From the NCBI GenBank assembly GCA_964373605.1, contig CAYJVQ010000002.1, positions 1-25,202 on the forward strand: a stretch of DNA of 25,202 nucleotides, written 5' to 3'. The DNA is from an uncultured Gammaproteobacteria bacterium. Its GTDB lineage: Bacteria; Patescibacteriota; Patescibacteriia; UBA9934; GWF2-40-263. The translations under genes were made by a program, and so were the position numbers. Below the pieces are notes generated by a model, which searched no databases, had not been told where the DNA came from, and saw only the letters and a program-made list of their open reading frames with translations. How positions within the stretch are numbered: the first letter of the stretch is position 1; each line of letters opens with the position of its first letter. This document shows, in pieces, positions 81 through 23,348 of this stretch.

Positions 81-1271
81 CTATTTTATCTCAAGGTAAA
101 CATGATCCACCAGCCGAGAAACCTTTCGAACCCAAAAAGGAAAAAATTGCACATCCACAGAAGTGGCAACGCCTTCTTGAATCAACGTGCGACGCACCTC
201 CTCTTCTGACATTCCAACAAAACGTCCGGCCTCCAAAGCTTGACTTGTCTTCGAAGTCATCGCGCGACCGGTTTGGCTGACTTGAATGCTTGCCGTTGCG
301 TCTTGAAGATTCACTTGTTGAACCGTCACGCGCCGATTCTCTTCGCCAAAATCCACAAATTCCCGCCCTTGACCCAAACCTTCATGCAGTTTGCGAAGAG
401 TGATTTTTTTCAGCGCCTCTTCATCGTAAAAAACGGCGGTCACACTCACTTTCAGCTCCACATCAAACGTCCCCACTTCCTCACCGGCTTTTACATCGGT
501 TTTTTGATCGAGGACTTCAACAAAAAACGCCTCGCCAGTGTACAACGGTTGACGTTGCGCTCGCAACATCGCTTTGGCGTCCTCAAGCAATTCCGCTTTC
601 AATCCTTCAAACCCGCGATCAATCTCCGCCTGCGACAACACGGAAATAAATTTCACCCCGCCGGTCATGGGTGCAAGGGATTGAGCGGTCACGAGCGTTT
701 GTTTCGCTTGAGACAATCCCGGAATCGTAAAGGAAGATGGGCCGATATTGCCTTCCACTCCTTTTTTGTCCGCATACACTTCTGCCTCCACACTTCCCTG
801 TGCCGGAATGGTCAGCGTCTTTTTTAATCGATAAAGAATACCCTCGGGAGTCAAAAAACGCGTGGTCGCCACAAGCAGTTGCGGCGTTGACATGATGTTT
901 TTGATCGTCACGGTTCCCACCGCTTGACCATCTATCGCTTTTTGTGACGGTTCTGTTGGGGTGACAACTTTCTTTCGACCAAGCGACCCTGAATATATTT
1001 CGCCTTGGATTTCACCTTCTTTCACGGCCACCTCAACCGTTTGTACAATAAAATCCGTTGTGATTTCTTTTGAAACGGTTGTCACACGAATCACCGCTTT
1101 CATCGTCGACAAATACAAAACCACAAACAAAACCGTTACGACAAGAATCACAAAAACGATCGCGATGCGCCGATACAACAAAAGAGGTATCGCGTGGGAC
1201 AACGGTTCCCTTGGCGCCTGTTTCTTGTTGATGGGAATGCGGGCTGTTTTTGCCATTTTGTGTGCAGACAT
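81..1271 (-). CDS. Single-pass membrane protein with a baseplate J/gp47-like extracytoplasmic domain (CPR-type)
   Basis: ORF of ~396 aa from ATG 1271 (alternative ATG 1256). The ORF-track start at 1355 is a GTG inside the inverted-repeat element. One TM helix (IAIVFVILVVTVLFVVLYLS) is followed by GTVTIKN..TRF..G..V.A...G..GNI...F.IPGL....GG, a pattern I recall from CPR proteins annotated as baseplate-J-like. Family call from motif memory only. Confidence 0.6.
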   Translation of the reverse strand: MSAHKMAKTARIPINKKQAPREPLSHAIPLLLYRRIAIVFVILVVTVLFVVLYLSTMKAVIRVTTVSKEITTDFIVQTVEVAVKEGEIQGEIYSGSLGRKKVVTPTEPSQKAIDGQAVGTVTIKNIMSTPQLLVATTRFLTPEGILYRLKKTLTIPAQGSVEAEVYADKKGVEGNIGPSSFTIPGLSQAKQTLVTAQSLAPMTGGVKFISVLSQAEIDRGFEGLKAELLEDAKAMLRAQRQPLYTGEAFFVEVLDQKTDVKAGEEVGTFDVELKVSVTAVFYDEEALKKITLRKLHEGLGQGREFVDFGEENRRVTVQQVNLQDATASIQVSQTGRAMTSKTSQALEAGRFVGMSEEEVRRTLIQEGVATSVDVQFFPFWVRKVSRLVDHVYLEIK

Positions 1272-1300
1272 AAAGACGCAGACTGATGAGAATCTCTCAT

Positions 1301-1370
1301 GGGACCTCTGAAAAAGTGATGGATTTTCGTTAAACAGAGAGACGAAAAGACACACTTTTTCAGAGGTCCC
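1301..1370. mobile_element. MITE-like element with 18-bp perfect terminal inverted repeats
   Basis: GGGACCTCTGAAAAAGTG (1301-1318) is the exact reverse complement of CACTTTTTCAGAGGTCCC (1353-1370). An inner pair TTTTCGT (1324-1330)/ACGAAAA (1342-1348) is present. No transposase inside and no clear target-site duplication. Confidence 0.6.
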
Positions 1371-11120: not shown

Positions 11121-11891
11121 CTACACTTGCAAGAGCCAATCCCGAATCAATTCCTTGGTATCCTCCGGTCCGTCTACCGCAATCGTTTCAATACCGGTAC
11201 GCTTAACGGGTTCATCATTTCCCCCTTCATACAACGCATCTCCGACAAAAATCATTTTCTCAATGGCGATGCCCAAATGTTTTTGCATCTGAAAAACACC
11301 GTATCCCTTGTCGATCCCTTTCATCGTCACATCAATGGAAGATTTTCCAGGAACCTTGATCTCAAATTCAGGCAAATATTCTTTCAGTCTTCCAACGATT
11401 TCCCATCGTCTATCCGCGGCCGAACCTTTGTAAGCATCCTTCCGTTCAATCGGGGCTTGTTGTCCCAGCGCGGAAAATGTCACCTGTGTCCCGCGATCTT
11501 CGATAATTTCTCCATACACGGTTTTTGGATGCTCATAACCGATATCTTTGAAAGCCGACGCAAACGCTTGCTTAATCTTTGCGCGCTGTTGTAAAGAAAG
11601 CTCATGCGCATACACGGTCTTCCATATCCCATCTTCATATCGCAAAAACTTCGAGCCGGAGGTTGGAAACAAGAAAAGTTTCTCAAAAAGACGTTCATGG
11701 CCTTTCAGACTCTCCAATAACTGCATCTCAAACACAGGAAACCACCCGCCTCCAATGACCGCAACGGATTTTTTTTCCAATAATCCGCAAAAAAGTTCCA
11801 CCATTTCCGCATCCATGGGAGTCTTACTTCTCGCCAAGGTCCCATCCAGATCAAAAACCAGGAGTTCTTTTTCAAGAAGAGGTGAATTCAT
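11121..11891 (-). CDS. HAD-IIB family hydrolase, phosphomannomutase (eukaryotic PMM)-like
   Basis: Motif I FDLDGTL, EDRGTQVTFSALGQQAP cap segment, K in GIDKG, and motif IV FVGDALYEGGND, which resembles the PMM-family FFGD...GGND. Confidence 0.8.
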   Translation of the reverse strand: MNSPLLEKELLVFDLDGTLARSKTPMDAEMVELFCGLLEKKSVAVIGGGWFPVFEMQLLESLKGHERLFEKLFLFPTSGSKFLRYEDGIWKTVYAHELSLQQRAKIKQAFASAFKDIGYEHPKTVYGEIIEDRGTQVTFSALGQQAPIERKDAYKGSAADRRWEIVGRLKEYLPEFEIKVPGKSSIDVTMKGIDKGYGVFQMQKHLGIAIEKMIFVGDALYEGGNDEPVKRTGIETIAVDGPEDTKELIRDWLLQV

Positions 11892-11906
11892 AGTCAGGCC
11901 ATGTTA

Positions 11907-11935
11907 TTGACGATTGCTCACGATTCCCGTATGAT
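11907..11935 (+). promoter_or_regulatory. sigma70 promoter for the lemA-htpX-clpC...radA cluster
   Basis: TTGACG (11907-11912), 17-nt spacer, TATGAT (11930-11935). lemA ATG at 11962. Confidence 0.75.
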
Positions 11936-11961
11936 TTGATTACCATTAACCCCGAAATTCT

Positions 11962-12513
11962 ATGGAATTTATCTGGATCATTCTCATTGTTCTTGCCATC
12001 ATCGCCTTTTGGTTCATTCTAACATACAACGGACTGATCGGCTCAAGAAACCGTGTCGAGGAAGCTTGGTCGGACATTGATGTCCAGATGAAGCGACGAT
12101 ACGATCTGATCCCAAACATCGTGAACTCGGTCAAGGGATACGCCACGCATGAAGAAGGCGTCTTTACAAAAGTGACACAAGCGCGCGCACAGGCCATGAG
12201 CGCCAAAACGGTTCAAGATCACGCACAGGCCGAAAACATACTGACAGAAACGCTCAAATCGCTTTTTGCCGTGGCAGAAAGTTATCCGCAACTTCAAGCG
12301 TCTCAAAACTTCCTCCATCTCCAACAGGAACTCACAGATGCGGAAGACAAAATTCAAGCGGCTCGCCGTTTCTATAACGCAAACACCCGCGACTATATCA
12401 CCCAACTTCAAGTCTTCCCAACCAACTTGATTGCCGGCATGTTTGGATTTACAAAACGGGAATTTTTTGATGCACCGGATACAGAGTTGGAACGACCGGA
12501 AGTAAAGTTTTAA
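11962..12513 (+). CDS. lemA: LemA family protein
   Basis: N-terminal TM, then YNGL...RNRVEEAWSDIDVQMKRRYDLIPN, AVAESYPQLQASQNF, EDKIQAARRFYN, FPTNLIA. Confidence 0.95.
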   Translation: MEFIWIILIVLAIIAFWFILTYNGLIGSRNRVEEAWSDIDVQMKRRYDLIPNIVNSVKGYATHEEGVFTKVTQARAQAMSAKTVQDHAQAENILTETLKSLFAVAESYPQLQASQNFLHLQQELTDAEDKIQAARRFYNANTRDYITQLQVFPTNLIAGMFGFTKREFFDAPDTELERPEVKF

Positions 12514-12543
12514 AGAACGCACAAGGGAAAAGTCGGGAGAAAT

Positions 12544-13428
12544 ATGTATTCCCAAATCACTGCCAACAAACGCAAAACTTGGGTGCTCATCTCGCTTTTT
12601 ACCATTGTCATACTCTTGCTTGGATGGGCTCTTGGCGTTTGGTATGGTGACGCAAATATCGGCATCATTCTTGCGGTGATCGTTGCCACCATCATGACGC
12701 TCTTTGGATATTATCGCGGCGATTCCGTTGCTCTGACGGTTGCCGGCGCGAAAGAAGTAAAAAAACAAGAGGCGCCAGAATTATATCGGCTCGTTGAAAA
12801 TCTTTCGATCGCTTCCGGACTTTCGACTCCGCGCGTCTATGTGATTGAGGATCCATCCGCAAACGCCTTTGCCACCGGACGTGATCCGTCGCATGCATCC
12901 ATCGCGGTCACCACCGGCTTGTTGCGTCTCTTGGAAAAGCCGGAATTGGAAGGTGTGCTTGCCCATGAACTTTCTCACATCAAAAATTACGACATTCGTG
13001 TCATGACGATTGTGATCGTGCTGGTCGGGGTCGTGATTCTCCTTTCCGATGGGATGCTTCGTTCGATTTTCTTTCGAAATCGCGACAACGATAACAAGGG
13101 AGCCGGCATTCTCATCTTGATCGGCCTTGTGCTCGCGATTCTCTCCCCGTTATTTGCCGAACTGATAAAACTGGCCGTTTCGCGTTCGCGCGAATATCTT
13201 GCGGATGCATCCGGATCGCTTCTGACCCGTTATCCCGAAGGCCTTGCGCGTGCGCTTGAAAAAATCGCCAAGGAAGATCGGCCCATGAAACGCGCAAACC
13301 ACGCGACCGCGCATCTTTTCCTTGCCAACCCGTTTGATCCTCACGTCACCAAAAAATTTGAGCACTGGTTTGGCACGCACCCACCGATCGAAGAACGCAT
13401 CAAACGCTTGCGCGGAATCCCCACCTAA
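12544..13428 (+). CDS. htpX: M48 family membrane zinc metalloprotease HtpX
   Basis: NAFATGRDP, LEGVLAHELSHI (HExxH), SRSREYLADA, THPPIEERIKRL. Classic lemA-htpX pair. Confidence 0.93.
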   Translation: MYSQITANKRKTWVLISLFTIVILLLGWALGVWYGDANIGIILAVIVATIMTLFGYYRGDSVALTVAGAKEVKKQEAPELYRLVENLSIASGLSTPRVYVIEDPSANAFATGRDPSHASIAVTTGLLRLLEKPELEGVLAHELSHIKNYDIRVMTIVIVLVGVVILLSDGMLRSIFFRNRDNDNKGAGILILIGLVLAILSPLFAELIKLAVSRSREYLADASGSLLTRYPEGLARALEKIAKEDRPMKRANHATAHLFLANPFDPHVTKKFEHWFGTHPPIEERIKRLRGIPT

Positions 13429-13437
13429 CCTCTCCCC

Positions 13438-15897
13438 ATGTCACGCGATATCGTTGACAAATTTTCCACTCATCTCAAAAACGTGCTGACGCGCGCGCTT
13501 TGTTTTGTGGTCGAAAACAATGAAAAAACGATCCAACCGGAACATTTGCTTTGGGCGGTTGGGACACAACGCGGATGTATCGGCGCAGAAGTTCTGAAAA
13601 AAACAGGGGTAAAACAGACGGATCTTCGCGCACTGGTGGGTGCAACATCGCGCGTAAAATCCACTCCTCTTGCGTCCACAAACGCCTCATTGCATCTCTC
13701 CGGCGATGCCAAACGCATTGTGGAAAAAGCCGTGTTGACCGCAAACATTTACGGCCATCGCTATGTCGGAACCGAACATCTGCTTTCGGGAATCTTGCAA
13801 GTTGAAAACCAAACCATTCACCAATTTTTTGATCACCAAAAAACGGATACGAAAGAATTGCGCCAACAGCTTTCTCTTGTTCTTAAAAGCACATCAAAAT
13901 TCCCGGATATGACAAATGCGATGACAAAAGAAACCCTCGAGGAGGAGGAACAGGAAAAACTAGCCGCCCTGGAATACTTCGGTCGCGAACTCACCACACG
14001 GGAAGCGCAGCAAAAAATTGACCCGGTCATCGGACGTGATGAAGAGATCAACCGCCTGATGCAAATTTTATCCAGGCGCACCAAAAATAATCCGCTTTTG
14101 ACCGGCGCGCCCGGCGTTGGAAAAACAGCGATTGTGGAAGGGCTTGCCAAACACATCGTGGAAGGACGCGTCCCACCCGCTCTCCAACATAAACGGATCT
14201 TTGCCCTTGATTTGGCGCTCATGGTCGCCGGGACGATGTATCGTGGAGAATTCGAAGGGCGTCTGCGACAAGTGGTGGATGAAGTGAAAAAAAATGAAGA
14301 TATCATTCTTTTCATCGACGAAATCCACACGATTGTTGGAGCCGGCGCGGCCTCCGGATCGATGGATGCGGCGAACATTTTAAAACCGGCGCTCGCGCGC
14401 GGCGACATTCGTTGTATCGGCGCGACCACTCCGGACGAACACAAAAAACACATCGAATCAGACAGCGCGCTTGAACGCCGTTTCCAAACGATCTTGGTGG
14501 AAGAACCTTCACCAAAAGATGCCGAGCGCATTTTGCAAGGAGTGGCGCCCTACTATGAATCCTTCCATCGCGTGCGGATTTTGCCGGAAGCCATTATCTC
14601 CGCGGTCAGACTTTCCAGCCGCTATGTGCAGGACCGTCAGCTTCCGGATAAAGCCATTGATCTGATTGACGAAGCGGCCGCGGGAATTCGGATCGCGCAA
14701 GGCCAACCGACATCTTTTCAAAAACGTCGTCAACTTGAACAAGAACTGCAACAGATGAAAGACGTCAAACGCCAAGCGGTTGTCGAGGAGAGATTTCATG
14801 ATGCGTTTGAACTCAAAATAAAAGAGGAACAGATGCGGCGATCCATGGAAACAACCATGGGAGAATCGCCGATCGAGTTTGTCCCGTCCGTCACGGCCAC
14901 AGACATTGCCGGCGTCATTTCCCGCATGACCGGCATTCCTCTCTCGATTTTGCATGACCAATCCAATGTCACCATTGACGCGTTCTACGAACAGCTTGAA
15001 ACGCGCATTTTGGGACAAGGCGCCATTCTCAAAACGGTTTGTGCGGCGCTCGCGCGAGCGCGCGGGGGCGTGACACATCCAAAACGGCCACTGGCGTCTT
15101 TCTTATTCGCGGGGCCATCCGGCGTGGGAAAAACAGAACTGGCAAAAGCCATTGCTCACGTTTTTTTTCATGATCATCGAAACTTCATTCGCTTGGATAT
15201 GTCCGAATACGCCGAAGGATTTACGGTTTCAAAATTGATCGGCTCACCAGCCGGGTATGTCGGATACAAAGACCAATCCAACCTCACGGACCGTGTAAAA
15301 CAACGTCCCTACAGTGTTGTCCTGTTTGATGAAATGGAAAAAGCGCATCGGGACGTCCAAAATTTGCTTTTGCAAATTTTGGAAGAAGGCGAACTGGCGG
15401 ACGCCACAGGCAGAACGATCAATTTCAAAAATACCATGGTCATCATGACAACGAATGTCGGCCTTGAATCGTTTGAACATTCAGGAATTGGATTCGCCCA
15501 ATCCGAAGAAACCGCCCGCTTGGGAATCACACAAGATGTACGCAAAGAACTCGAAGAACGATTCCGACCCGAACTCATCAACCGCATTGAAACGGTTTGC
15601 GTTTTTGATCCGCTCAATAAAGAAACCGTCACGCGTATCGTTGAAAAAGAGCTTCGTGATCTTCAAGAGCGCTTGCACGAACACAACGCTCTCACCTTCA
15701 CCTTGGATCCAAACGTGTCCGGTCATCTTTCCGCGCAGGTCAATCTCAAATTCGGCGCCCGCAGTGTCCGTCATCTGATTCAAAAAGAAATTGAAACACG
15801 CATTGCGGAACGTCTCTCAAAAAAAGACCGGCCGAAAAAATTACACTTGGGCCTGCACCGATCAGGAATCGTTATCACCAAACCGCGAGTCGTGTAA
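13438..15897 (+). CDS. clpC: ATP-dependent Clp protease ATP-binding subunit ClpC
   Basis: Clp-N repeats (EHLLW, YVGTEHLL), NBD1 GAPGVGKT/IILFIDEIH, UVR-like M domain, NBD2 GPSGVGKT/VLFDEMEK, GYVGY pore loop, IGF ClpP-docking tripeptide. Confidence 0.92.
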   Translation: MSRDIVDKFSTHLKNVLTRALCFVVENNEKTIQPEHLLWAVGTQRGCIGAEVLKKTGVKQTDLRALVGATSRVKSTPLASTNASLHLSGDAKRIVEKAVLTANIYGHRYVGTEHLLSGILQVENQTIHQFFDHQKTDTKELRQQLSLVLKSTSKFPDMTNAMTKETLEEEEQEKLAALEYFGRELTTREAQQKIDPVIGRDEEINRLMQILSRRTKNNPLLTGAPGVGKTAIVEGLAKHIVEGRVPPALQHKRIFALDLALMVAGTMYRGEFEGRLRQVVDEVKKNEDIILFIDEIHTIVGAGAASGSMDAANILKPALARGDIRCIGATTPDEHKKHIESDSALERRFQTILVEEPSPKDAERILQGVAPYYESFHRVRILPEAIISAVRLSSRYVQDRQLPDKAIDLIDEAAAGIRIAQGQPTSFQKRRQLEQELQQMKDVKRQAVVEERFHDAFELKIKEEQMRRSMETTMGESPIEFVPSVTATDIAGVISRMTGIPLSILHDQSNVTIDAFYEQLETRILGQGAILKTVCAALARARGGVTHPKRPLASFLFAGPSGVGKTELAKAIAHVFFHDHRNFIRLDMSEYAEGFTVSKLIGSPAGYVGYKDQSNLTDRVKQRPYSVVLFDEMEKAHRDVQNLLLQILEEGELADATGRTINFKNTMVIMTTNVGLESFEHSGIGFAQSEETARLGITQDVRKELEERFRPELINRIETVCVFDPLNKETVTRIVEKELRDLQERLHEHNALTFTLDPNVSGHLSAQVNLKFGARSVRHLIQKEIETRIAERLSKKDRPKKLHLGLHRSGIVITKPRVV

Positions 15898-15901
15898 TAC
15901 G

Positions 15902-16639
15902 ATGATTTTTTCTATGCCCCTACCCGTTATTGCCGCTGTTGGAGCCGGTATTGTGCGAGGCGCCGCCGTTGCCGGACGAGCGGCTGTTAGCTCTGGACGC
16001 GCGGCCGGATCTGCAAGCGCGCGATCGTCTTCACAAATGAAAAGCCGATTTCAACAAGGACGCACACAGGCAAGACAGATGGAAAACGTGAACAAACTCA
16101 ATAAAAGAGAACGGACGGAACAAGAAGATGAAACGGGACCGCAGCCGAACATGTTTGGCGGCGCAAGCCGATCAAGCCAATTCAAATCCGCAACCGCCAT
16201 GCTCAAACAGTTCAATGCCATGCAAGCCCAGACGCCTGCGGACGCGAAACCTGCGCAGGATCTCGCAAAAGCGGCCGCAAAAAAAATGATCCCGAAGGCC
16301 GCGATCTTTATCGCCAACCAAATCGCGGTCACGCTGGAACTCGGAACCGCCGGCATTGCTTTTCTCCTCACGGTTTTCATTCGATTAATCACTTTAGGAT
16401 GGTACAATACAGAAATGATCTATGGCGGTTGGATCATGAAAGGAAAACACAAACTGATCGGGCCGCTCAACTGGGATCCGATTCCCATCCCTTTTGCAAA
16501 AAAAAATAGCAGCGAAAACGCCATCAGCAAAACTCTGTTGGTTCTCATCGCTGATTTCATGATCGTCATTGTCATGATGCTTCCGCTTGTTTATCTGATT
16601 GTTTATCTTTCCATTCTGGACTCGATAAATCCATTCTAA
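15902..16639 (+). CDS. Hypothetical membrane protein (Ala/Gly/Ser/Arg-rich N-terminus, C-terminal hydrophobic helices)
   Basis: ORF with ATG at 15902 (or 15914) just after the clpC stop. Hydrophobic segments LGTAGIAFLLTVFIRLITLGW and LLVLIADFMIVIVMMLPLVYLIVYLSIL. Confidence 0.7.
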   Translation: MIFSMPLPVIAAVGAGIVRGAAVAGRAAVSSGRAAGSASARSSSQMKSRFQQGRTQARQMENVNKLNKRERTEQEDETGPQPNMFGGASRSSQFKSATAMLKQFNAMQAQTPADAKPAQDLAKAAAKKMIPKAAIFIANQIAVTLELGTAGIAFLLTVFIRLITLGWYNTEMIYGGWIMKGKHKLIGPLNWDPIPIPFAKKNSSENAISKTLLVLIADFMIVIVMMLPLVYLIVYLSILDSINPF

Positions 16640-16643
16640 TTTT

Positions 16644-17870
16644 ATGTCAGAACGCACAAAACGCTTCCTGCTCATTATCGGATTTATCTTGTCTGTCATC
16701 GTCATCGCGACTTTGTTGTATTTCGCCTTTTTCAGATCCACGCCTTCCAAACCCGTTGTCGAGCCCACGAAAACGGAACCCACCGCTTCTTTGGGTGGGC
16801 TTGATCCGTCCGGCTTGGGTGTTCCAAGCGAAATCACCCAGCCCGGCGCCTCGACCGGCCTTCAAGAAGCGGACACCGTTGCACAAGGCGGACTCACGCA
16901 AACAACGCAACTCACGAGCGCACCGATTGCGAGTCCGACCCTTTCCGAGGATGGAACGGCGGTTCATTTTTATGATGCAACGGATGGAAAATTCTATCGC
17001 CTTGATGCCAACGGAGAAATCAAATCCTTATCTGAAAAACAATTTCCCTCGCTCGAGAAAGCGACCTGGGGCAAAGAGGCAAACAAAGCCGTGCTCGAAT
17101 TTCCGGACGGCTCAAACATCGTGTACGATTTTGAAAATGAAACTCAAGTCACGCTTCCCAAACACTGGGAGGATTTTGACTTTTCACCGACCACCGATGA
17201 ATTGATCGCAAAAAGCATCGGGATTGACCCGGAAAATAGATGGTTGGTGGTTTCAAACGCAAACGGATCAAACGTCAAAAGTATTCAAGCTCTTGGAAAT
17301 AACGAATCGAAAGTTCAAGTGAATTGGTCCCCCAATGATCAAGTGATCGCGTTTTCAGATACGGCGGAAGGGTTAGGCAGCTTCGACCGCCGAACGATTA
17401 TTCCTCTGGGAAAGAAACAAGAAAATTTTAAAGGGCTCGTCGTAGAAGGACTCGGATTCAAATCCCAGTGGTCGCCGGACGGAAAAAAACTTCTTTATTC
17501 CGTTGCCGGTTCTTACAGTCAGTATCGTCCCCTTTTGTGGATTGTGAATGCAACGAGCGCGAGCATGGGGGAAGAACGAAAAAGTCTGTCGCTCAATACC
17601 TGGGTGGATAAATGCACATTTTCATCTTCAAACACGGCCTTGTGTGCGGTTCCGCAAGGTCTTCCGCCCAATGCCGGACTTCAACCGGCCGCTTTTAGCG
17701 ATTATCCGGATGCTCTGTATGAAGTGAATATCGAAACAGGCGCCACCAAACTCATCGCCATCCCATCGGGAAACAAAGAAATGAAGAATCTTTTTGTGAC
17801 CGCGGATAAGTCTCTCTTGTATTACACAAATGCGGATACGGGCAATCTGGAATTTATCAAATTGAAATAG
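16644..17870 (+). CDS. Membrane-anchored extracytoplasmic protein with a TolB/WD40-like beta-propeller
   Basis: 408 aa. N-terminal TM (FLLIIGFILSVIVIATLLYFAFF), Pro/Thr/Gly linker, repeated blade-type motifs (PTLSEDG, FDFSPT, NWSPND, QWSPDGKKLLYS), one Cys pair. Confidence 0.75.
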   Translation: MSERTKRFLLIIGFILSVIVIATLLYFAFFRSTPSKPVVEPTKTEPTASLGGLDPSGLGVPSEITQPGASTGLQEADTVAQGGLTQTTQLTSAPIASPTLSEDGTAVHFYDATDGKFYRLDANGEIKSLSEKQFPSLEKATWGKEANKAVLEFPDGSNIVYDFENETQVTLPKHWEDFDFSPTTDELIAKSIGIDPENRWLVVSNANGSNVKSIQALGNNESKVQVNWSPNDQVIAFSDTAEGLGSFDRRTIIPLGKKQENFKGLVVEGLGFKSQWSPDGKKLLYSVAGSYSQYRPLLWIVNATSASMGEERKSLSLNTWVDKCTFSSSNTALCAVPQGLPPNAGLQPAAFSDYPDALYEVNIETGATKLIAIPSGNKEMKNLFVTADKSLLYYTNADTGNLEFIKLK

Positions 17871-17886
17871 GGAGATTTTAAACTTT

Positions 17887-18543
17887 ATGAACAATCGTTG
17901 GCTCGCATTTCTCCTGATTGGATTTTTCACGCTCATCACCTTTCTTTTTTATTGGCTCACCATTAAACCCATTGACCTCACCGTGCCTGCGAGCCACTTA
18001 AACCCTGTCACCGTGACAGAGCCGACCGTCACTTTTATCAACCCATCCAAAGGCGCGCAAAACCCTCGATTGACTCTTGTCGAGTTTGCGGATTTTCAGT
18101 GCAAATACTGCCAAAGCATCCAAATCGCTCTGGAGGCCGCGCTACGCGCATTTCCAAATGACATTCGACTCGTTTGGAAAAATCTTCCAAATCCATCCGC
18201 GCAACCGGAATCCATTCCCGCGGCGATCGCGGCTCATTGTGCGAACAGACAGGGAAAATTCTGGGAGTTTCATGATTTGCTTTTTGCTCGACAGGATGTT
18301 CTTTCTCCGGAGATTTATTCCCAGATCGCCAATGAACTGAAATTGGACGTTAAGCGATTTTCCGCTTGTTTTGAAGCGCAAGACACCATGGCTATCATTC
18401 AAAAAGATACGGATGAAGGCCTCGCGCTCGGTCTTGTCGCCACTCCCACTTTGTTCATTGGTTCCCAAAAAATCGTCGGTTTGATCACCGCAGAAGAACT
18501 TATTGGTGTCATTCAAACCGAACTTCAAAAAATGGACTTATGA
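17887..18543 (+). CDS. dsbA: DsbA/BdbD-like thiol-disulfide oxidoreductase with N-terminal membrane anchor
   Basis: LVEFADFQCKYC (CxxC), LVWKNLP, AAHCANRQGKFWEFHD, cis-Pro loop GLVATPTLFIG. Confidence 0.88.
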   Translation: MNNRWLAFLLIGFFTLITFLFYWLTIKPIDLTVPASHLNPVTVTEPTVTFINPSKGAQNPRLTLVEFADFQCKYCQSIQIALEAALRAFPNDIRLVWKNLPNPSAQPESIPAAIAAHCANRQGKFWEFHDLLFARQDVLSPEIYSQIANELKLDVKRFSACFEAQDTMAIIQKDTDEGLALGLVATPTLFIGSQKIVGLITAEELIGVIQTELQKMDL

Positions 18544-19898
18544 AACACGGGGCGCTTATTTTTTTTGTCGTCATGACCTTTCTTTTCCCGATGCCTTCTT
18601 TGGCATCGCCTCTTTGCGCTTGTTATTTTGGGGAAAAAAATGATTGCGCGGCGGAAGCCGTCAACGAGGATGCAAAAGAGGTAAATTGCAAAGCCGCGTG
18701 CGAAACAAAATATAAAACACAACTCAACACCTATCAATACAATGAATCAGCCCTTTCAGCGACCATCTTGTTCAGCTGTACGCAAGCGCATCAATTTGCT
18801 CTGGAGGCCAAATCCAAAACAAATCCGGTCGTTCCAAAATTAAATGTCGAGATCCCGGGATTTGAATTTAGCCCCATCAAAGAATTCGGTGGCAATCTGC
18901 ACGTCAATTTTTTGGGAGAGTACATTGCGGGTGTGTACTCTTATCTCATCACCATTTCAACGGTCGCCGCCGTTATCTTGCTCATGGTCGGCGGCCTGCA
19001 ATGGTCCATGGGCGCCATGTCACCCGGCCAAATGGCAAAAGGGAAGGAACGGATTAAAAATGCGATCACGGGACTCGTATTGCTCATGAGCGTGGTGTTC
19101 ATTTTAAAGATGGTGAATCCTCGGCTCGTCACGTTTGATCCGCTGCAGCTAAGATTTATCGAGGAACTTGGACCGGCAGAAAAAGACGATCCTGGCGATG
19201 TGGCAGAGGAAGGAAGCTTAGCGGATGTGCCAAAACCGCTACAGGGACAGGGAGGAAAATTCTTTGATGGAGTGACCATATGCGGCTCCAAAAATGATTG
19301 TGTGAAGTGGTGTAAGGAAAATCAGAACGCAAATGAATGGCCGGACTATAACAAAAAAACAATTGACTTCTCCCTGACAAAATCCATTCCCTCTTCCCCA
19401 GGATTGGTAGGCCGCCAAGGTCACAGAGCAACGGATGAAATGATCACCGCACTGAAAAAAGCCGGACAAATTGCCGTTTCAAAAAATTCAAATTATCTCA
19501 TTAAGGCCGGTGGAGTTCGAACACTCAAACAACAGATCAAATTAGTGTGCGATAAAGTGAAAGAGGCAGAAGCCACGACCGATCCGGAAAAAGCTCAAAA
19601 AATCCTTAATAAAATCGGCAAGAGCGTCGCGTTCCCGGGAAACTCAAATCATGGCAATGGCGTCGCAACTGATGTCCAATTTTATGAAGGAACCAAACCG
19701 CTGATTGAACCGAGTTTTGCCACATCAAGCCAAAATGGACCGCAGTGGGAAAAAGGAGCTGAAGAGCTCGCAGACATTATGGCGGAAGCCGGATTCCTGC
19801 GATTAAACTCTGAAGTCTGGCATTTCGAACTCGAAGGAAAAGCAGGAACGAACAACCGTTGTAAAGGATCGGCTCAATGTCCTTTCCCGGTAAAATGA
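18540..19898 (+). CDS. VirB2/TrbC-like pilin fused to a C-terminal M15 (VanY-like) Zn peptidoglycan peptidase
   Basis: Signal peptide (aa 1-22), Cys-rich domain, two-TM pilin-like hairpin at aa ~124-199 (GGLQW...AKGKERIKNAITGLVLL...VNP), then GVRT..QQ (R327), PGNSNHGNGVATD (H371, D378) and EVWH (E425, H428). Confidence 0.82.
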   Translation: MKHGALIFFVVMTFLFPMPSLASPLCACYFGEKNDCAAEAVNEDAKEVNCKAACETKYKTQLNTYQYNESALSATILFSCTQAHQFALEAKSKTNPVVPKLNVEIPGFEFSPIKEFGGNLHVNFLGEYIAGVYSYLITISTVAAVILLMVGGLQWSMGAMSPGQMAKGKERIKNAITGLVLLMSVVFILKMVNPRLVTFDPLQLRFIEELGPAEKDDPGDVAEEGSLADVPKPLQGQGGKFFDGVTICGSKNDCVKWCKENQNANEWPDYNKKTIDFSLTKSIPSSPGLVGRQGHRATDEMITALKKAGQIAVSKNSNYLIKAGGVRTLKQQIKLVCDKVKEAEATTDPEKAQKILNKIGKSVAFPGNSNHGNGVATDVQFYEGTKPLIEPSFATSSQNGPQWEKGAEELADIMAEAGFLRLNSEVWHFELEGKAGTNNRCKGSAQCPFPVK

Positions 19899-21214
19899 AC
19901 ATTCTGAATCCACTGAGACCGTTGAAAATTGACGCTATGTATAGTTGCTCTAAATGCGATGCCCAATCAACCAAATGGTCCGGTCGTTGTTTTGAGTGTC
20001 AGACTTGGGGAACGCTTGTTGAAGAGACCGGAACAACGCAGGTAAAAAATTCATCGCAAGCAACAAAGACTCTCAAGCCGACGCGACTGACGGAAATGAC
20101 CGGCCAGAACGAGCACACACGTTTTGAAACCGGCGAACCGGAAATAGATCGCGTGCTTGGAGGAGGCATCGTCAAAGGATCTCTTGTGCTTCTCTCCGGC
20201 GAACCGGGAATAGGAAAATCCACACTGGTGGCGGATATCACAAAACGTTTTGCACAAAAAAATCTTTCCGTTTTATACATCTCCGGAGAAGAATCCGGCG
20301 CACAGCTCAAAACGCGTTTTGTGCGCCTCCAAACCAACCTCGATCGTATTTCGTTTTTGGAATCAGACGCCGTTGAGTCACTGGTGAAAACGATCGAAAA
20401 AGAAAAACCGGAGGTGGTGATCATTGATTCCGTTCAAACCATCGCGTCGGAACAATTGGATTCACTTTCCGGAAGCCCAACGCTTATCCGCTACGGAACT
20501 TCCCTCTTGCTTGAAACCGCCAAACGCACCGGAATTTCGATTCTGTTGATCGGACAGGTCACCAAAGACGGCGCCATTGCCGGACCAAAAACACTTGAAC
20601 ATTTGGTTGATGTTGTGCTGTCGTTGGACGGAGACACCACTCATCCCTATCGCTGGCTCTCTTGCACGAAAAATCGTTTTGGAGCAACGGACGAGATGGG
20701 TGTTTTTGAAATGACGTCAAGCGGCTTTTTGCCGGTTGAAAATCCATCCGCTCGATTTTTGGAAGAACGTGTGGCGGTGCCGGGCTCCGTGGTTGTCGCG
20801 ACGGCCGAAGGCACGCGTGTGTTTCTGGTGGAAGTGCAGGCGCTGGTTGAGAAGTCCACCTATTCCACTCCTGTCCGTCGCGCATCCGGTTTCGATCCAA
20901 ACCGTCTTCAAATGCTGATCGCCATTCTTTCCAAACGAGCAAACCTGAAACTCGGTGAACAAGATGTGTATCTCAATGTGATCGGTGGAATGAAACTGGA
21001 TGAACCTGCCGCGGATTTGGCGGTTTGTGCCGCAATCGTGAGTGCGTCAAAAAACATCACACACGAACAGCCCACCGTTTTTTTTGGAGAAGTGGGATTG
21101 GGTGGAGAAGTTCGACGAGTGCCAATGAGCGAAAAACGAATGAATGAATGCAGGCGTCTGGGGATCGAAACGATTCTCGGACCACATTCGATAAAAACAG
21201 TGCACGATCTCTAG
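19895..21214 (+). CDS. radA: DNA repair protein RadA/Sms
   Basis: Zn finger CSKC...WSGRCFEC, Walker A GEPGIGKST, IIDSVQT, KNRFG motif, Lon-like C-terminal domain (GEVGLGGEVR). Start is either 19895 (ATGA overlap with the upstream stop) or 19937. Confidence 0.96.
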   Translation: MNILNPLRPLKIDAMYSCSKCDAQSTKWSGRCFECQTWGTLVEETGTTQVKNSSQATKTLKPTRLTEMTGQNEHTRFETGEPEIDRVLGGGIVKGSLVLLSGEPGIGKSTLVADITKRFAQKNLSVLYISGEESGAQLKTRFVRLQTNLDRISFLESDAVESLVKTIEKEKPEVVIIDSVQTIASEQLDSLSGSPTLIRYGTSLLLETAKRTGISILLIGQVTKDGAIAGPKTLEHLVDVVLSLDGDTTHPYRWLSCTKNRFGATDEMGVFEMTSSGFLPVENPSARFLEERVAVPGSVVVATAEGTRVFLVEVQALVEKSTYSTPVRRASGFDPNRLQMLIAILSKRANLKLGEQDVYLNVIGGMKLDEPAADLAVCAAIVSASKNITHEQPTVFFGEVGLGGEVRRVPMSEKRMNECRRLGIETILGPHSIKTVHDL

Positions 21215-21234
21215 GCGGGGTGAAGGCGGGGTCC

Positions 21235-21274
21235 GTCGTCACCGGAAATCCGTTACCGGGTTACGGATGACGAC
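21235..21274. terminator. Hairpin at the convergent radA/recG junction (possible bidirectional terminator)
   Basis: GTCGTCA (21235-21241)/TGACGAC (21268-21274) outer stem and TCCGT (21249-21253)/ACGGA (21263-21267) inner stem. No U-tract on either side. Confidence 0.35.
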
Positions 21275-21296
21275 AGATGACAGAGGCCTTACCCCT

Positions 21297-23348
21297 CTAC
21301 TCTAAATGTACGGCCTCAAACAATGCGGCGATCTGCTCCCCAAGTCGCGGATGGGCTTCCAAAAACGGATCTTGTTCAAGAAGACTCGTGGCGTGCTTGT
21401 TGGCTTGTTTCATCAGATCAACATCCGCCTCTGTGGCAAGTTTGAAATCCGGAAATCCGGACTGTGCCGTTCCAAACACGTTCCCTGATCCGCGCAGATG
21501 CAAGTCTTTCTCCGCAAGTTCGAATCCATCTTGAATCCGCTCGAGCAATCGCAGACGTTCAATCGCGGACGTCTGTGCTTGATCCGGCAGGACATAACAA
21601 TAAGACGAGATGGACGAACGCCCGACGCGGCCGCGCAATTGGTGAAGTTGCGCCAGCCCGAATCGCTCTGCGCCCATAATGACGATGACCGTTGCATTGG
21701 GCACATCCATCCCCACTTCAACGACGGTGGTGGAAACCAGTACATCAATCTGTTTTTCTCTGAAACCAGAAAGAGTGGATTGCTTTTCATCTGATTTCAT
21801 CTTCCCGTGCAACATGGCCATTTTCAACCCTTTGAGGACATCCTTTTTTAACCATTCAAAAACTTCTTTCACAGATTTGGCGCCGAGAGTATCGGAAGGA
21901 TCGATCAGCGGGCACACAACGTAAACTTGTCTTCCTTTTTGAATTTCAGCTTTGACATGTTGCCACATACCTGCACGCTCTCTGTTGAGCACAACCGCCG
22001 TGCAAACGGGTTGACGTCCTTTTGGGAGTTGTCGAATCGATGAAACGTCCAAATCGCCAAAAATCGTCAGCGCGAGCGAACGCGGAATCGGAGTCGCGGT
22101 CATGGAGAGCAGATGCGGGGAAAGGGCGCCTGAACGTTTGAGCAGTGCGTGTCGCTGTGCAACGCCGAACCGGTGTTGTTCATCGATAATCACCAGATTC
22201 ATGTGAGAAAGATTTACCGTTTCCTCAAGAAGCGCGTGCGTGCCGATCACACAGCAAATTTTGCTTGAGGCGATCTGTTCAATCAGTTTTTCTTTTTTTA
22301 TATCGTCCTGGCCAATCCGTTTTTGACTGCGCGTAAATAAACCGATCGCCTCATCCGGAAACCAAGTTGAAAAAACCGCGTGTTGTTGAACACAAAGAAT
22401 TTCCGTTGGCGCAAGATAGACGACGAGTCGATTTTGTGCAAGCGCGCTTGCGGTCGCAATGGCGGCCACAACCGTTTTTCCGGATCCGACATCCCCTTGA
22501 AGCAGACGATTCATCGGATGGGTTTTTGCGAGATCTTGAACGATCTCCCATGCCGCTCGGCGTTGCGCAGGCGTGAGCGTGAAAGGTAAAGAGTCAACAA
22601 ATGTTTTCAAACGAACCTGATTCAACGGAATGGGATGCGCGTGGGAAACGAAACGCTCGCGGCGCACATGCGCAAACATGAGTTGATGCAAAAACAGTTC
22701 ATCAAATTTCAACCGACGGATCGCGGAAGAAAGTTCCGCTTGTGTGTTTGGATGATGAATGAAACGAATGGCTGAAACCAAATCCGGCAAGTCTTCCGCT
22801 TTTCTGATGGTGTCCGGAAGCCAATCAACCAATTCATGATCGGAAGAAACAGCCTGGGAGATCGCACGGCGAATTCGATGCTGTTTGAGGGATCCGGAAA
22901 GTCGATACACCGGAACAAGACGACCCGTCAGCACATGGCGGCCCGCCGGTTCCTGTATCGGGTTGACCATGGCACGACGAAAACGAACATCTACGCTTCC
23001 CGCGAGCGCGAGTTCCGTACCGGGACGAATCGTTTGCGTGAGATATTCCTGATTGAACCAAACAATGGGAAGAGTTCCTGTCTCGTCTTCCAAAACCGCC
23101 TCCACAATTTTCAGGTGACGATTTTTTGCAGGACGCGATTTGATGGATTGAATCCTTCCTATCACGGTGAAGGTTTCTCCCGGCTTGATAAAACGAATCT
23201 TCTTTATCTGCGAAAAATCATCGTAACGAAATGGAACGACAAAAAGTAAATCGCGTACAGACACGATTCCCATATTTTTCAAATCCTTTACTGCCGTCGG
23301 TCCGATCCCGAACAGTTCGCCGACCGATGAAGACAAATGCAAGGCCAT
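21297..23348 (-). CDS. recG: ATP-dependent DNA helicase RecG
   Basis: GIGP N-terminus, wedge OB domain (VWFNQEYL), RRLKFDELF, LPFTLT.AQ, RLLQGDVGSGKT, DEQH, SMTATPIPRSL, QLHQLRGRVGR, DLHLRGSG. Confidence 0.97.
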   Translation of the reverse strand: MALHLSSSVGELFGIGPTAVKDLKNMGIVSVRDLLFVVPFRYDDFSQIKKIRFIKPGETFTVIGRIQSIKSRPAKNRHLKIVEAVLEDETGTLPIVWFNQEYLTQTIRPGTELALAGSVDVRFRRAMVNPIQEPAGRHVLTGRLVPVYRLSGSLKQHRIRRAISQAVSSDHELVDWLPDTIRKAEDLPDLVSAIRFIHHPNTQAELSSAIRRLKFDELFLHQLMFAHVRRERFVSHAHPIPLNQVRLKTFVDSLPFTLTPAQRRAAWEIVQDLAKTHPMNRLLQGDVGSGKTVVAAIATASALAQNRLVVYLAPTEILCVQQHAVFSTWFPDEAIGLFTRSQKRIGQDDIKKEKLIEQIASSKICCVIGTHALLEETVNLSHMNLVIIDEQHRFGVAQRHALLKRSGALSPHLLSMTATPIPRSLALTIFGDLDVSSIRQLPKGRQPVCTAVVLNRERAGMWQHVKAEIQKGRQVYVVCPLIDPSDTLGAKSVKEVFEWLKKDVLKGLKMAMLHGKMKSDEKQSTLSGFREKQIDVLVSTTVVEVGMDVPNATVIVIMGAERFGLAQLHQLRGRVGRSSISSYCYVLPDQAQTSAIERLRLLERIQDGFELAEKDLHLRGSGNVFGTAQSGFPDFKLATEADVDLMKQANKHATSLLEQDPFLEAHPRLGEQIAALFEAVHLE

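Follow-up and report, generated by a model that had tools for sequence, protein, structure and literature searches.

A conserved pilin-type carrier with predicted, exchangeable peptidoglycan hydrolase heads at one chromosomal slot of Candidatus Uhrbacteria

How would a bacterium use a protein in which the membrane hairpin of a type IV secretion pilin is joined to a cell wall peptidase? The question is raised by one gene (P0001; 18540..19898, forward strand) in a stretch of 25,202 nucleotides (nt), here called the window, which covers positions 1 to 25,202 of contig CAYJVQ010000002.1 (assembly GCA_964373605.1) and comes from an ultra-small groundwater bacterium, Candidatus Uhrbacteria (Patescibacteria). 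Its open reading frame (ORF) and translation give a fusion protein of 452 amino acids (aa). In the sole genetically tractable Patescibacterium, the type IV secretion system (T4SS) and its pilin arrays are essential, and their function has been called "completely unknown" (PMC11665869). VirB1 is scarce in Patescibacterial genomes with VirB2 homologues, and the crossing of a Gram-positive-like wall by a T4SS without VirB1 is an open point (PMC12102498). Our comparisons show that the fusion protein belongs to an order-wide family with one conserved carrier (a Cys-rich N-domain, a PxLxVxIP motif, and the hairpin), exchangeable peptidoglycan hydrolase heads, and a conserved chromosomal slot. The explanation that we prefer, at a little less than an even chance, is that the protein is a wall-remodelling enzyme placed by its pilin-type hairpin at a secretion or pilus apparatus.

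All parts of the protein are encoded on the forward strand. A signal peptide (aa 1–23, ending in SLAS; 18540..18608), with a hydrophobic core at about aa 12–19 and one basic residue ahead of it, is present in all homologues. It is followed by the N-domain (aa 24–90; 18609..18809), with the order beta-beta-alpha-beta-alpha and Cys at 26, 28, 36, 50, 54, and 80, and by the pre-hairpin motif PxLxVxIPGxxFS (aa 99–113; 18834..18878), defined by conserved columns across carriers. The two-helix VirB2-like hairpin (aa 124–193; 18909..19118), supported by Pfam PF18895 and by modelled helices, has a basic loop (aa 153–176) with four K/R against one D/E. Next comes an acidic disordered linker (aa 194–243; 19119..19268) with 11 D/E against five K/R and a pLDDT below 50 at aa 199–219. 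The M15B/LAS zinc peptidase domain, or head (aa 244–452; 19269..19895), was assigned by profile comparison with the PDB, Foldseek, and invariant motifs; it holds the catalytic set R327, S369-x-H371-x6-D378, and E425-x-x-H428, a Cys patch (C248, C254, C258), and C337, C441, and C447, which brings the protein to 12 Cys. Hydropathy gave three hydrophobic stretches, centred at about aa 12–19, 137–151, and 180–190. The residue map of a preliminary description of this DNA (signal peptide, 12 Cys, hairpin with basic loop, acidic linker, and M15 set) was therefore found in place, and the molecular description is secure.

The search for homologues gave nine full-length proteins with 37–57% identity. 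The start codon aligns with theirs, the reading frame is intact, and no substitution occurs at any of the 12 Cys or the six residues of the catalytic set across the ten aligned sequences. Because this holds at such low identity, the pattern is, on the evidence of the alignment, under selection, with chance excluded. An AlphaFold2 model built on the same alignment had a confident N-domain, helices at 124–160 and 162–192, a disordered linker at 199–243, and a C-domain with pLDDT 80–94 over most of its length. Within the otherwise variable, disordered acidic linker, D217-x-G219-D220 (19188–19199), inside K-D-D-P-G-D, is also invariant and could be a putative metal-binding or processing site.

The nature of the head was addressed in three ways. 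A family profile searched against the PDB matched YodJ/LdcB (4ox3) at 3.5e-7 and BaLdcB, the LdcB of Bacillus anthracis (4mph at 5.4e-6, and 4jid), and also VanY and VanXY. The SxHxxGxAxD and ExWH of the head line up with the motifs for zinc binding and catalysis in solved enzymes (SEHQTGLAMD and EPWH in YodJ), and Foldseek with the head returned VanX 1r44, VanY 5hnm, and LdcB 4mph/4jid at probability 1.00, with TM-scores by target of 0.50–0.56. Since profile, motif alignment, and Foldseek agree, the head is, as judged from profile and model, an intact LAS/M15B zinc peptidase; the complete zinc site seen earlier holds up, with ligands, Glu, and Arg present and invariant and an LAS fold in the model. 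Identity to the solved enzymes was 16–24%, Pfam Peptidase_M15 scored 19.3 bits on the head, and the nine homologues carry a precomputed PF02557 hit. The nearest characterised relatives, the LdcB/YodJ and VanY carboxypeptidases, trim the C-terminal D-Ala off stem peptides without opening the wall. The fusion gene is the only M15B gene of the genome.

Immediately upstream lies a DsbA-like thioredoxin gene (17887..18543, forward strand; Pfam Thioredoxin_4 3.4e-20, DSBA 2.3e-13), whose stop and the fusion gene's start overlap in ATGA. A DsbA-like gene on the same strand directly precedes the carrier in 65 of 80 related loci. The DsbA-like gene is shown to be dedicated to, and translationally coupled with, the fusion gene. 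The conserved Cys are confined to the N- and C-terminal domains, with none in the hairpin. Because the protein has a cleavable signal peptide, an even number of transmembrane helices, a basic loop, conserved Cys, and a coupled DsbA-like gene, the N-domain and the enzyme domain are both shown to be extracytoplasmic as far as sequence can place them. The preliminary description had put the enzyme outside the cell, and the same evidence agrees with it; the contrary case raised there, a cytoplasmic C-terminal domain, finds no support in the signal peptide, the loop charge, the Cys, or the DsbA-like gene. The product would thus be a zinc peptidase of the VanY/LdcB type (M15B, LAS) that is stabilised by disulfides and lies outside the cytoplasm, where its hairpin holds it to the outer side of the cytoplasmic membrane.

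The hairpin had been called VirB2/TrbC-like. The Pfam family T4SS_pilin (PF18895), used also in the survey of Patescibacterial T4SS by Quinonero-Coronel et al. 2025 (PMC12102498), matched aa 129–190 with 31.7 bits against a cut-off of 26.6 (profile positions 9–69 of 71), and a PF18895 scan of the whole genome gave the fusion protein an E value of 5.1e-9. A hidden Markov model of the carrier matched the genome's own small pilins and the hits were reciprocal; in these sequence comparisons the hairpin is shown to be homologous to those pilins. The PF18895 score above cut-off and the reciprocal hits ruled out a generic two-helix membrane anchor that resembles a pilin by chance. PF04956, which is VirB2/TrbC in the strict sense, gave no match to the fusion protein up to E = 1, and the size of the protein (452 aa, with about 100 before and 260 after the hairpin) is not that of a strict VirB2/TrbC protein, which in its mature form has about 70–120 aa and little besides the hairpin. 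The kinship with pilins thus stands, and the match to the strict family does not.

Conservation of this region is high. The hairpin is about 45–50% identical even between carriers bearing different heads, and P99, L101, I105, P106, and F110 of the preceding motif are invariant or at least 90% conserved in 20 carriers and 150 representatives. The genome's small pilins lack the motif, and in the model it falls in a low-confidence segment. Hairpin, loop residues, and pre-hairpin motif appear to be conserved far beyond the need of a plain membrane anchor. The published pilin arrays have a mean identity of 25% (PMC12102498), and the far higher value of the carrier hairpin would support its placement at a secretion or pilus apparatus.

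In 20 carriers with different heads, five of the N-domain Cys are invariant and C36 is conserved in at least 90%. Folded alone by AlphaFold2, the N-domain had a pLDDT of 77–91. The best Foldseek match in the PDB had an E value of about 1, VIA-align against 48,161 chains reached at best Z 4.2, and a shape search of the ESM Atlas gave TM-scores of at most 0.45 by query. In the AlphaFold Database (AFDB) its own family was the sole match at Foldseek probability 1.00. As modelled, the N-domain matches no known fold.

The carrier was found in all of the 151 sampled genomes of the order. Its profile recovered 361 representatives at E ≤ 1e-30 and 11,636 at E ≤ 1e-10 (50% identity clusters, 1.84 billion proteins), and PxLxVxIPGxxFS was nearly invariant throughout the carriers compared. 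Named relatives were almost all metagenome-assembled genomes (MAGs) of Candidatus Uhrbacteria, with some Magasanikbacteria. To type the heads, we clustered the C-terminal tails of 169 carrier proteins by BLAST and searched the cluster representatives with Pfam. M15-type heads accounted for 42 tails, Amidase_2 for 22, C39/C70-like peptidases and NlpC/P60 for 19 each, M23 for 18, SLT for 16, and glucosaminidase and M15_4 for two each; several groups of tails had no head assignment. Almost all of the heads appear to belong to peptidoglycan hydrolase classes, and the M23, NlpC/P60, and lysozyme-type heads that the preliminary description had proposed to look for do occur on the same pilin core. 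The SLT, NlpC/P60, and M23 heads coincide with types of the monoderm VirB1 analogues.

Inflation of the VanY cluster by non-M15 tails that share the Cys linker was ruled out, with ExWH present in 42 of 42 tails. SxHxxGxAxD was exact in 19 of the 42, and the eight other tails inspected had either this motif with one substitution or a variant, H-x2-G-x-A-x-D preceded by CPH.

On a tree of 118 carrier proteins, head type required 68 changes, against a mean of 72.9 and a minimum of 66 for shuffled labels, so at long range the carrier seems to track lineage rather than head type. At short range, in the 26-row clade that holds the fusion protein, VanY and Amidase_2 carriers separate.

The genome has a second carrier pair on contig C40 (L013:112-2327), where a DsbA-like gene (242 aa) and a 440-aa carrier protein precede UvrA; L081 and L085, two loci of Uhrbacteria, show this DsbA-carrier-UvrA order as well. 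The 440-aa paralogue shares the carrier of the fusion protein, with 30% identity over aa 1–210, and its C-terminal domain, which is Cys-rich and about 220 aa long, matched neither Pfam nor the Atlas; an Atlas feature search gave nothing usable for this tail or for the N-domain. On contig C4 (L011:8564-19998), two neighbouring genes encode large surface proteins, one of 602 aa with Big_5 domains and one of 3366 aa, both of which open with a signal peptide followed by this pilin-type hairpin; a gene for a signal peptidase lies upstream, separated from them by a few genes. Within this genome, surface proteins seem to use the hairpin as a general N-terminal carrier.

The slot is conserved as well. 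The order LemA, M48, ClpB, a gene X, a PD40 propeller, DsbA, one or two carrier-hydrolase genes, RadA, and RecG occurs also in three database contigs and, among 13 loci sampled across six families of the order, in all but one (12 of 13); that locus lacks ClpB, X, and the propeller and retains DsbA-carrier-RadA-RecG. A DsbA gene was recognised at 12 of these 13 loci. The head at the slot varies (VanY, M23, NlpC/P60, Amidase_2, or none recognised), and two or more carrier genes were present in 24 of 80 related loci. This conserved housekeeping synteny ruled out an origin from a mobile element or phage.

The genome encodes a T4SS core of PrgI (VirB3-like), a VirB4-like ATPase, and two VirD4-like genes. 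A cluster on contig C8 (L019:5989-16378) has, in order, an M23 protein (646 aa), a 1059-aa and a 361-aa protein, PrgI, a 228-aa protein, VirB4-like (668 aa), a 192-aa protein, and a ComF-like phosphoribosyltransferase; the 1059-aa and 361-aa proteins had no family match. On the minus strand of contig C15 (L012:6636-8833), five tandem small T4SS_pilin genes (118–150 aa) adjoin a gene for a solute-binding protein, and the most upstream pilin carries its own Cys-rich N-terminal stretch. This array resembles the pilin arrays reported for Saccharibacteria. A single VirB4 lies 6–8 kb from the slot in four of five near-complete relatives, from four families, and 20 kb away in the fifth; radA and recG stand between. 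VirB4 is nine genes from the slot in database contig L022 and within 10 kb of it in seven of 20 loci with full flanks. Contig C8 ends about 1 kb past the ComF-like gene, and the corresponding end faces recG and the slot in relatives. Contig C2, which holds the fusion gene, ends just past recG and C8 just past virB4, so the two may adjoin. Two near-complete relatives have a VirB4 match (G007:C1:251980-253896 and G063:C2:194420-196294) interrupted by one in-frame stop each (TGA and TAA); a faulty assembly, a split of the gene, or decay could account for these stops.

If the fusion protein is a wall-remodelling enzyme placed at such an apparatus, its parts would work as follows. The signal peptide would be cleaved, the hairpin inserted, and six Cys pairs then oxidised by DsbA. 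The head, on an acidic tether of about 50 residues, would hydrolyse stem-peptide bonds of peptidoglycan, most likely by removal of the C-terminal D-Ala, and the conserved hairpin would bring the enzyme to, or into, the type IV secretion or pilus apparatus. The enzyme may there serve as the VirB1-like wall-remodelling partner that is mostly missing from Patescibacterial T4SS clusters. The first substrate would be the wall of the cell itself, and the wall of a partner cell is a possible one.

Several observations weigh against this explanation. The VirB1-like role suits the sibling heads better than the M15 head, because a carboxypeptidase opens no holes in the wall, and the Pfam VanY score of the head, 23.3 bits, is just under the cut-off of 25. 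The fusion gene lies outside the T4SS operon and the pilin array, in an apparent operon with clpB, dsbA, and radA. VirB4 and PrgI are on C8 and the fusion gene is on C2 in this fragmented assembly, and the proximity of VirB4 in relatives counts as few independent observations because kin share synteny. In the literature, pilus formation has been demonstrated for no PF18895 protein. Expression data were not found, as none of the RNA runs holds the stretch; DNA runs from two studies do.

The alternative that survives best, possible although less probable, is pure housekeeping: an LdcB-type LD- or VanY-type DD-carboxypeptidase that trims the stem peptides of its own cell after DacA, with the hairpin as a borrowed anchor and no link to secretion. 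The genome makes peptidoglycan, and besides three penicillin-binding protein transpeptidases and two M23 proteins it has two S11 DD-carboxypeptidases, which would yield the tetrapeptide substrate; Amidase_3 was not found in it. An LdcB role after DacA fits this set, as does the fact that LdcB/YodJ are the best solved relatives and that no second M15B gene exists. The conserved operon with housekeeping genes, the presence of the carrier family throughout the order, and the use of the same hairpin as N-terminal anchor by the Big_5 and 3366-aa proteins point the same way. However, M23, NlpC/P60, or Amidase_2 occupy the same slot in relatives, which leaves no tie to the LdcB reaction; hairpin, loop residues, and motif are conserved beyond what a simple anchor needs, and the slot stays near VirB4. 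The carrier-free enzymes listed above also show that the ordinary wall enzymes of this genome work without a carrier.

A bolder variant of the placement at the apparatus, which we regard as unlikely, takes the hairpin as a true pilus-assembly element. In Uhrbacteria and other Patescibacteria, rare subunits within or at the tip of VirB2-like filaments would form a modular toolkit on the pilus: they would display interchangeable hydrolases oxidised by their dedicated DsbA, would supply the "missing VirB1", and would open the wall of a partner or host as well as that of the cell itself.

More doubtful still is a minor or tip pilin in which the hairpin polymerises into a VirB2-like pilus and the displayed enzyme cuts into a host bacterium's wall as the cell attaches to it as an epibiont. 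Both termini point outward in solved VirB2-type pili, and a C-terminal head would accordingly be displayed. The nearly random distribution of head types on the carrier tree and the different heads at one slot would fit diversification against varying targets, and Southlakia cannot grow as an epibiont without its T4SS and pilin arrays (PMC10633639, PMC12857230). Against this, an N-domain of about 100 aa and a C-domain of about 250 aa on each subunit would crowd the filament, so that only rare incorporation is conceivable, and the lineage has no known host and the gene a housekeeping chromosomal context. The preliminary description had pictured a "drill tip" working on the host wall; this idea is weakened, since the nearest solved enzymes are carboxypeptidase-type and trim stem peptides rather than breach the wall, and the gene stands between dsbA and radA, outside a pilin array or T4SS operon. 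Last, a non-catalytic stem-peptide-binding module or a decaying gene without function is very improbable: the VanY score under cut-off and the low identity to solved enzymes would allow it, but zinc ligands, Glu, Arg, and the 12 Cys are invariant down to 37% identity, the frame is intact with an aligned start, and most of the domain is modelled with confidence.

We compared the fusion protein with three kinds of known proteins. It shares with the VirB2-like pilins of Patescibacterial T4SS (PF18895; arrays of Southlakia epibionticum and Nanosynbacter lyticus TM7x; PMC12102498, PMC10633639) a signal peptide, two hydrophobic helices, and a short basic loop; it is homologous to the five tandem small pilins of its own genome, which has the PrgI/VirB4/VirD4 core. 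It differs from them in its length (452 aa against about 120–150 aa), in the Cys-rich domain and motif before the hairpin and the enzyme after it, in its gene position outside the pilin array and VirB4 operon, and in a highly conserved hairpin, whereas the array pilins are hypervariable.

The second kind comprises LdcB/DacB/YodJ and VanY (MEROPS M15B; PDB 4ox3, 4mph, 4jid, 4ox5, 5hnm, and 5zhf), with which the head has in common the LAS fold, GxR...Q, SxHxxGxAxD, ExWH, His-Asp-His ligands, and the catalytic Glu and Arg. LdcB is likewise membrane-tethered and extracytoplasmic, as is predicted for the fusion protein. Unlike LdcB and VanY, the head has an extra Cys-patch subdomain (aa 244–290) and three predicted disulfides, and a pilin-type hairpin takes the place of a lipid anchor or a single transmembrane helix.

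The third kind is the VirB1-like hydrolases of monoderm conjugation, PrgK (pCF10), TraG (pIP501), CwlT (ICEBs1), and TcpG. These are also membrane-tethered wall hydrolases, they serve a T4SS, and their heads (SLT, NlpC/P60/CHAP-like, M23) overlap with the carrier repertoire; we know of no M15B example among them. They have a plain N-terminal transmembrane helix or lipid anchor, their genes belong to the T4SS operon, and as a rule a glycosidase is paired with a peptidase, whereas the carrier has one head, a pilin-family hairpin, a dsbA partner, and a position 6–8 kb from virB4 in relatives. The fusion therefore combines known kinds: VirB2-like pilins, M15B peptidases, and membrane-anchored VirB1 analogues.

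A fusion of pilin and hydrolase was described in none of the publications found, among them the T4SS survey (PMC12102498), Wang et al. 2023 (PMC10633639), a PNAS perspective, and a 2025 T4SS review; PF18895 hits are counted in the papers searched. The suggestion that similar fusions may already exist among annotations of the candidate phyla radiation (CPR) proved right. Three CPR entries of the AFDB (Foldseek E 1e-19 to 6e-17, about 22–23% identity) share the architecture of the fusion protein; they are automatically named "Peptidase M15B domain-containing protein" and make no mention of the hairpin. A0A1F7W770 and A0A0G1XH28 align over residues 1–443 or 1–446 of the fusion protein (N-domain, hairpin, and M15B head), and A0A1F5T0L6 over residues 94–443 (hairpin and head).

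What we consider useful and new is the order-wide slot, the dedicated DsbA partner, the exchangeable heads, and an N-domain that matches no known fold. A conserved pilin-family carrier with nearly every class of wall hydrolase, which in Uhrbacteria is universal, paired with DsbA, and kept near VirB4, is a concrete candidate for the missing VirB1 role. If its role is housekeeping, minimal cells would still organise wall remodelling on an unusual, conserved anchor. A fixed membrane chassis with exchangeable heads at one slot is also a natural example of domain shuffling; the soluble heads would be reagents for muropeptide assays, and the carrier one for localisation and pilus proteomics.

The other genes of the window are consistent with a chromosomal housekeeping region: dnaE, pheST, rseP, tyrS, lemA, an htpX-like M48 gene, clpB, radA, and recG. 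Gene X (15791..16639, forward strand; 282 aa, start codon uncertain) has no Pfam hit, and its position is filled by a gene for 212–380 aa in most sampled relatives. It is followed by the gene for the membrane-anchored PD40-type beta-propeller (16644..17870, forward strand; Pfam PD40), which is kept upstream of dsbA in relatives; a complex prediction for propeller aa 96–408 with N-domain and motif (aa 24–126) scored 0.00, with the partner poorly folded. Downstream of the slot lies the conserved radA/sms (19877..21214, forward strand; Pfam KaiC-type ATPase, zinc ribbon, and Lon/ChlI C-domains), which overlaps the last 22 nt of the fusion gene (19877–19898). Because the genes from 16644 to 21214 at least overlap or stand no more than 16 nt apart, one long transcript from upstream of lemA to radA is suggested. 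Promoters and terminators across 11800–21400 were no more numerous than expected from shuffling, and a promoter-like site ahead of lemA (11907–11935) was no better than chance. Beside dnaE, a 424-aa ORF (81–1355, minus strand) had no Pfam match at E ≤ 0.001. Many third-party annotation (TPA) MAG records titled "uncultured Gammaproteobacteria bacterium" (L039, L042, L046, L048, and others) hold the Uhrbacteria-type locus with the same synteny, and their Gammaproteobacteria label looks wrong.

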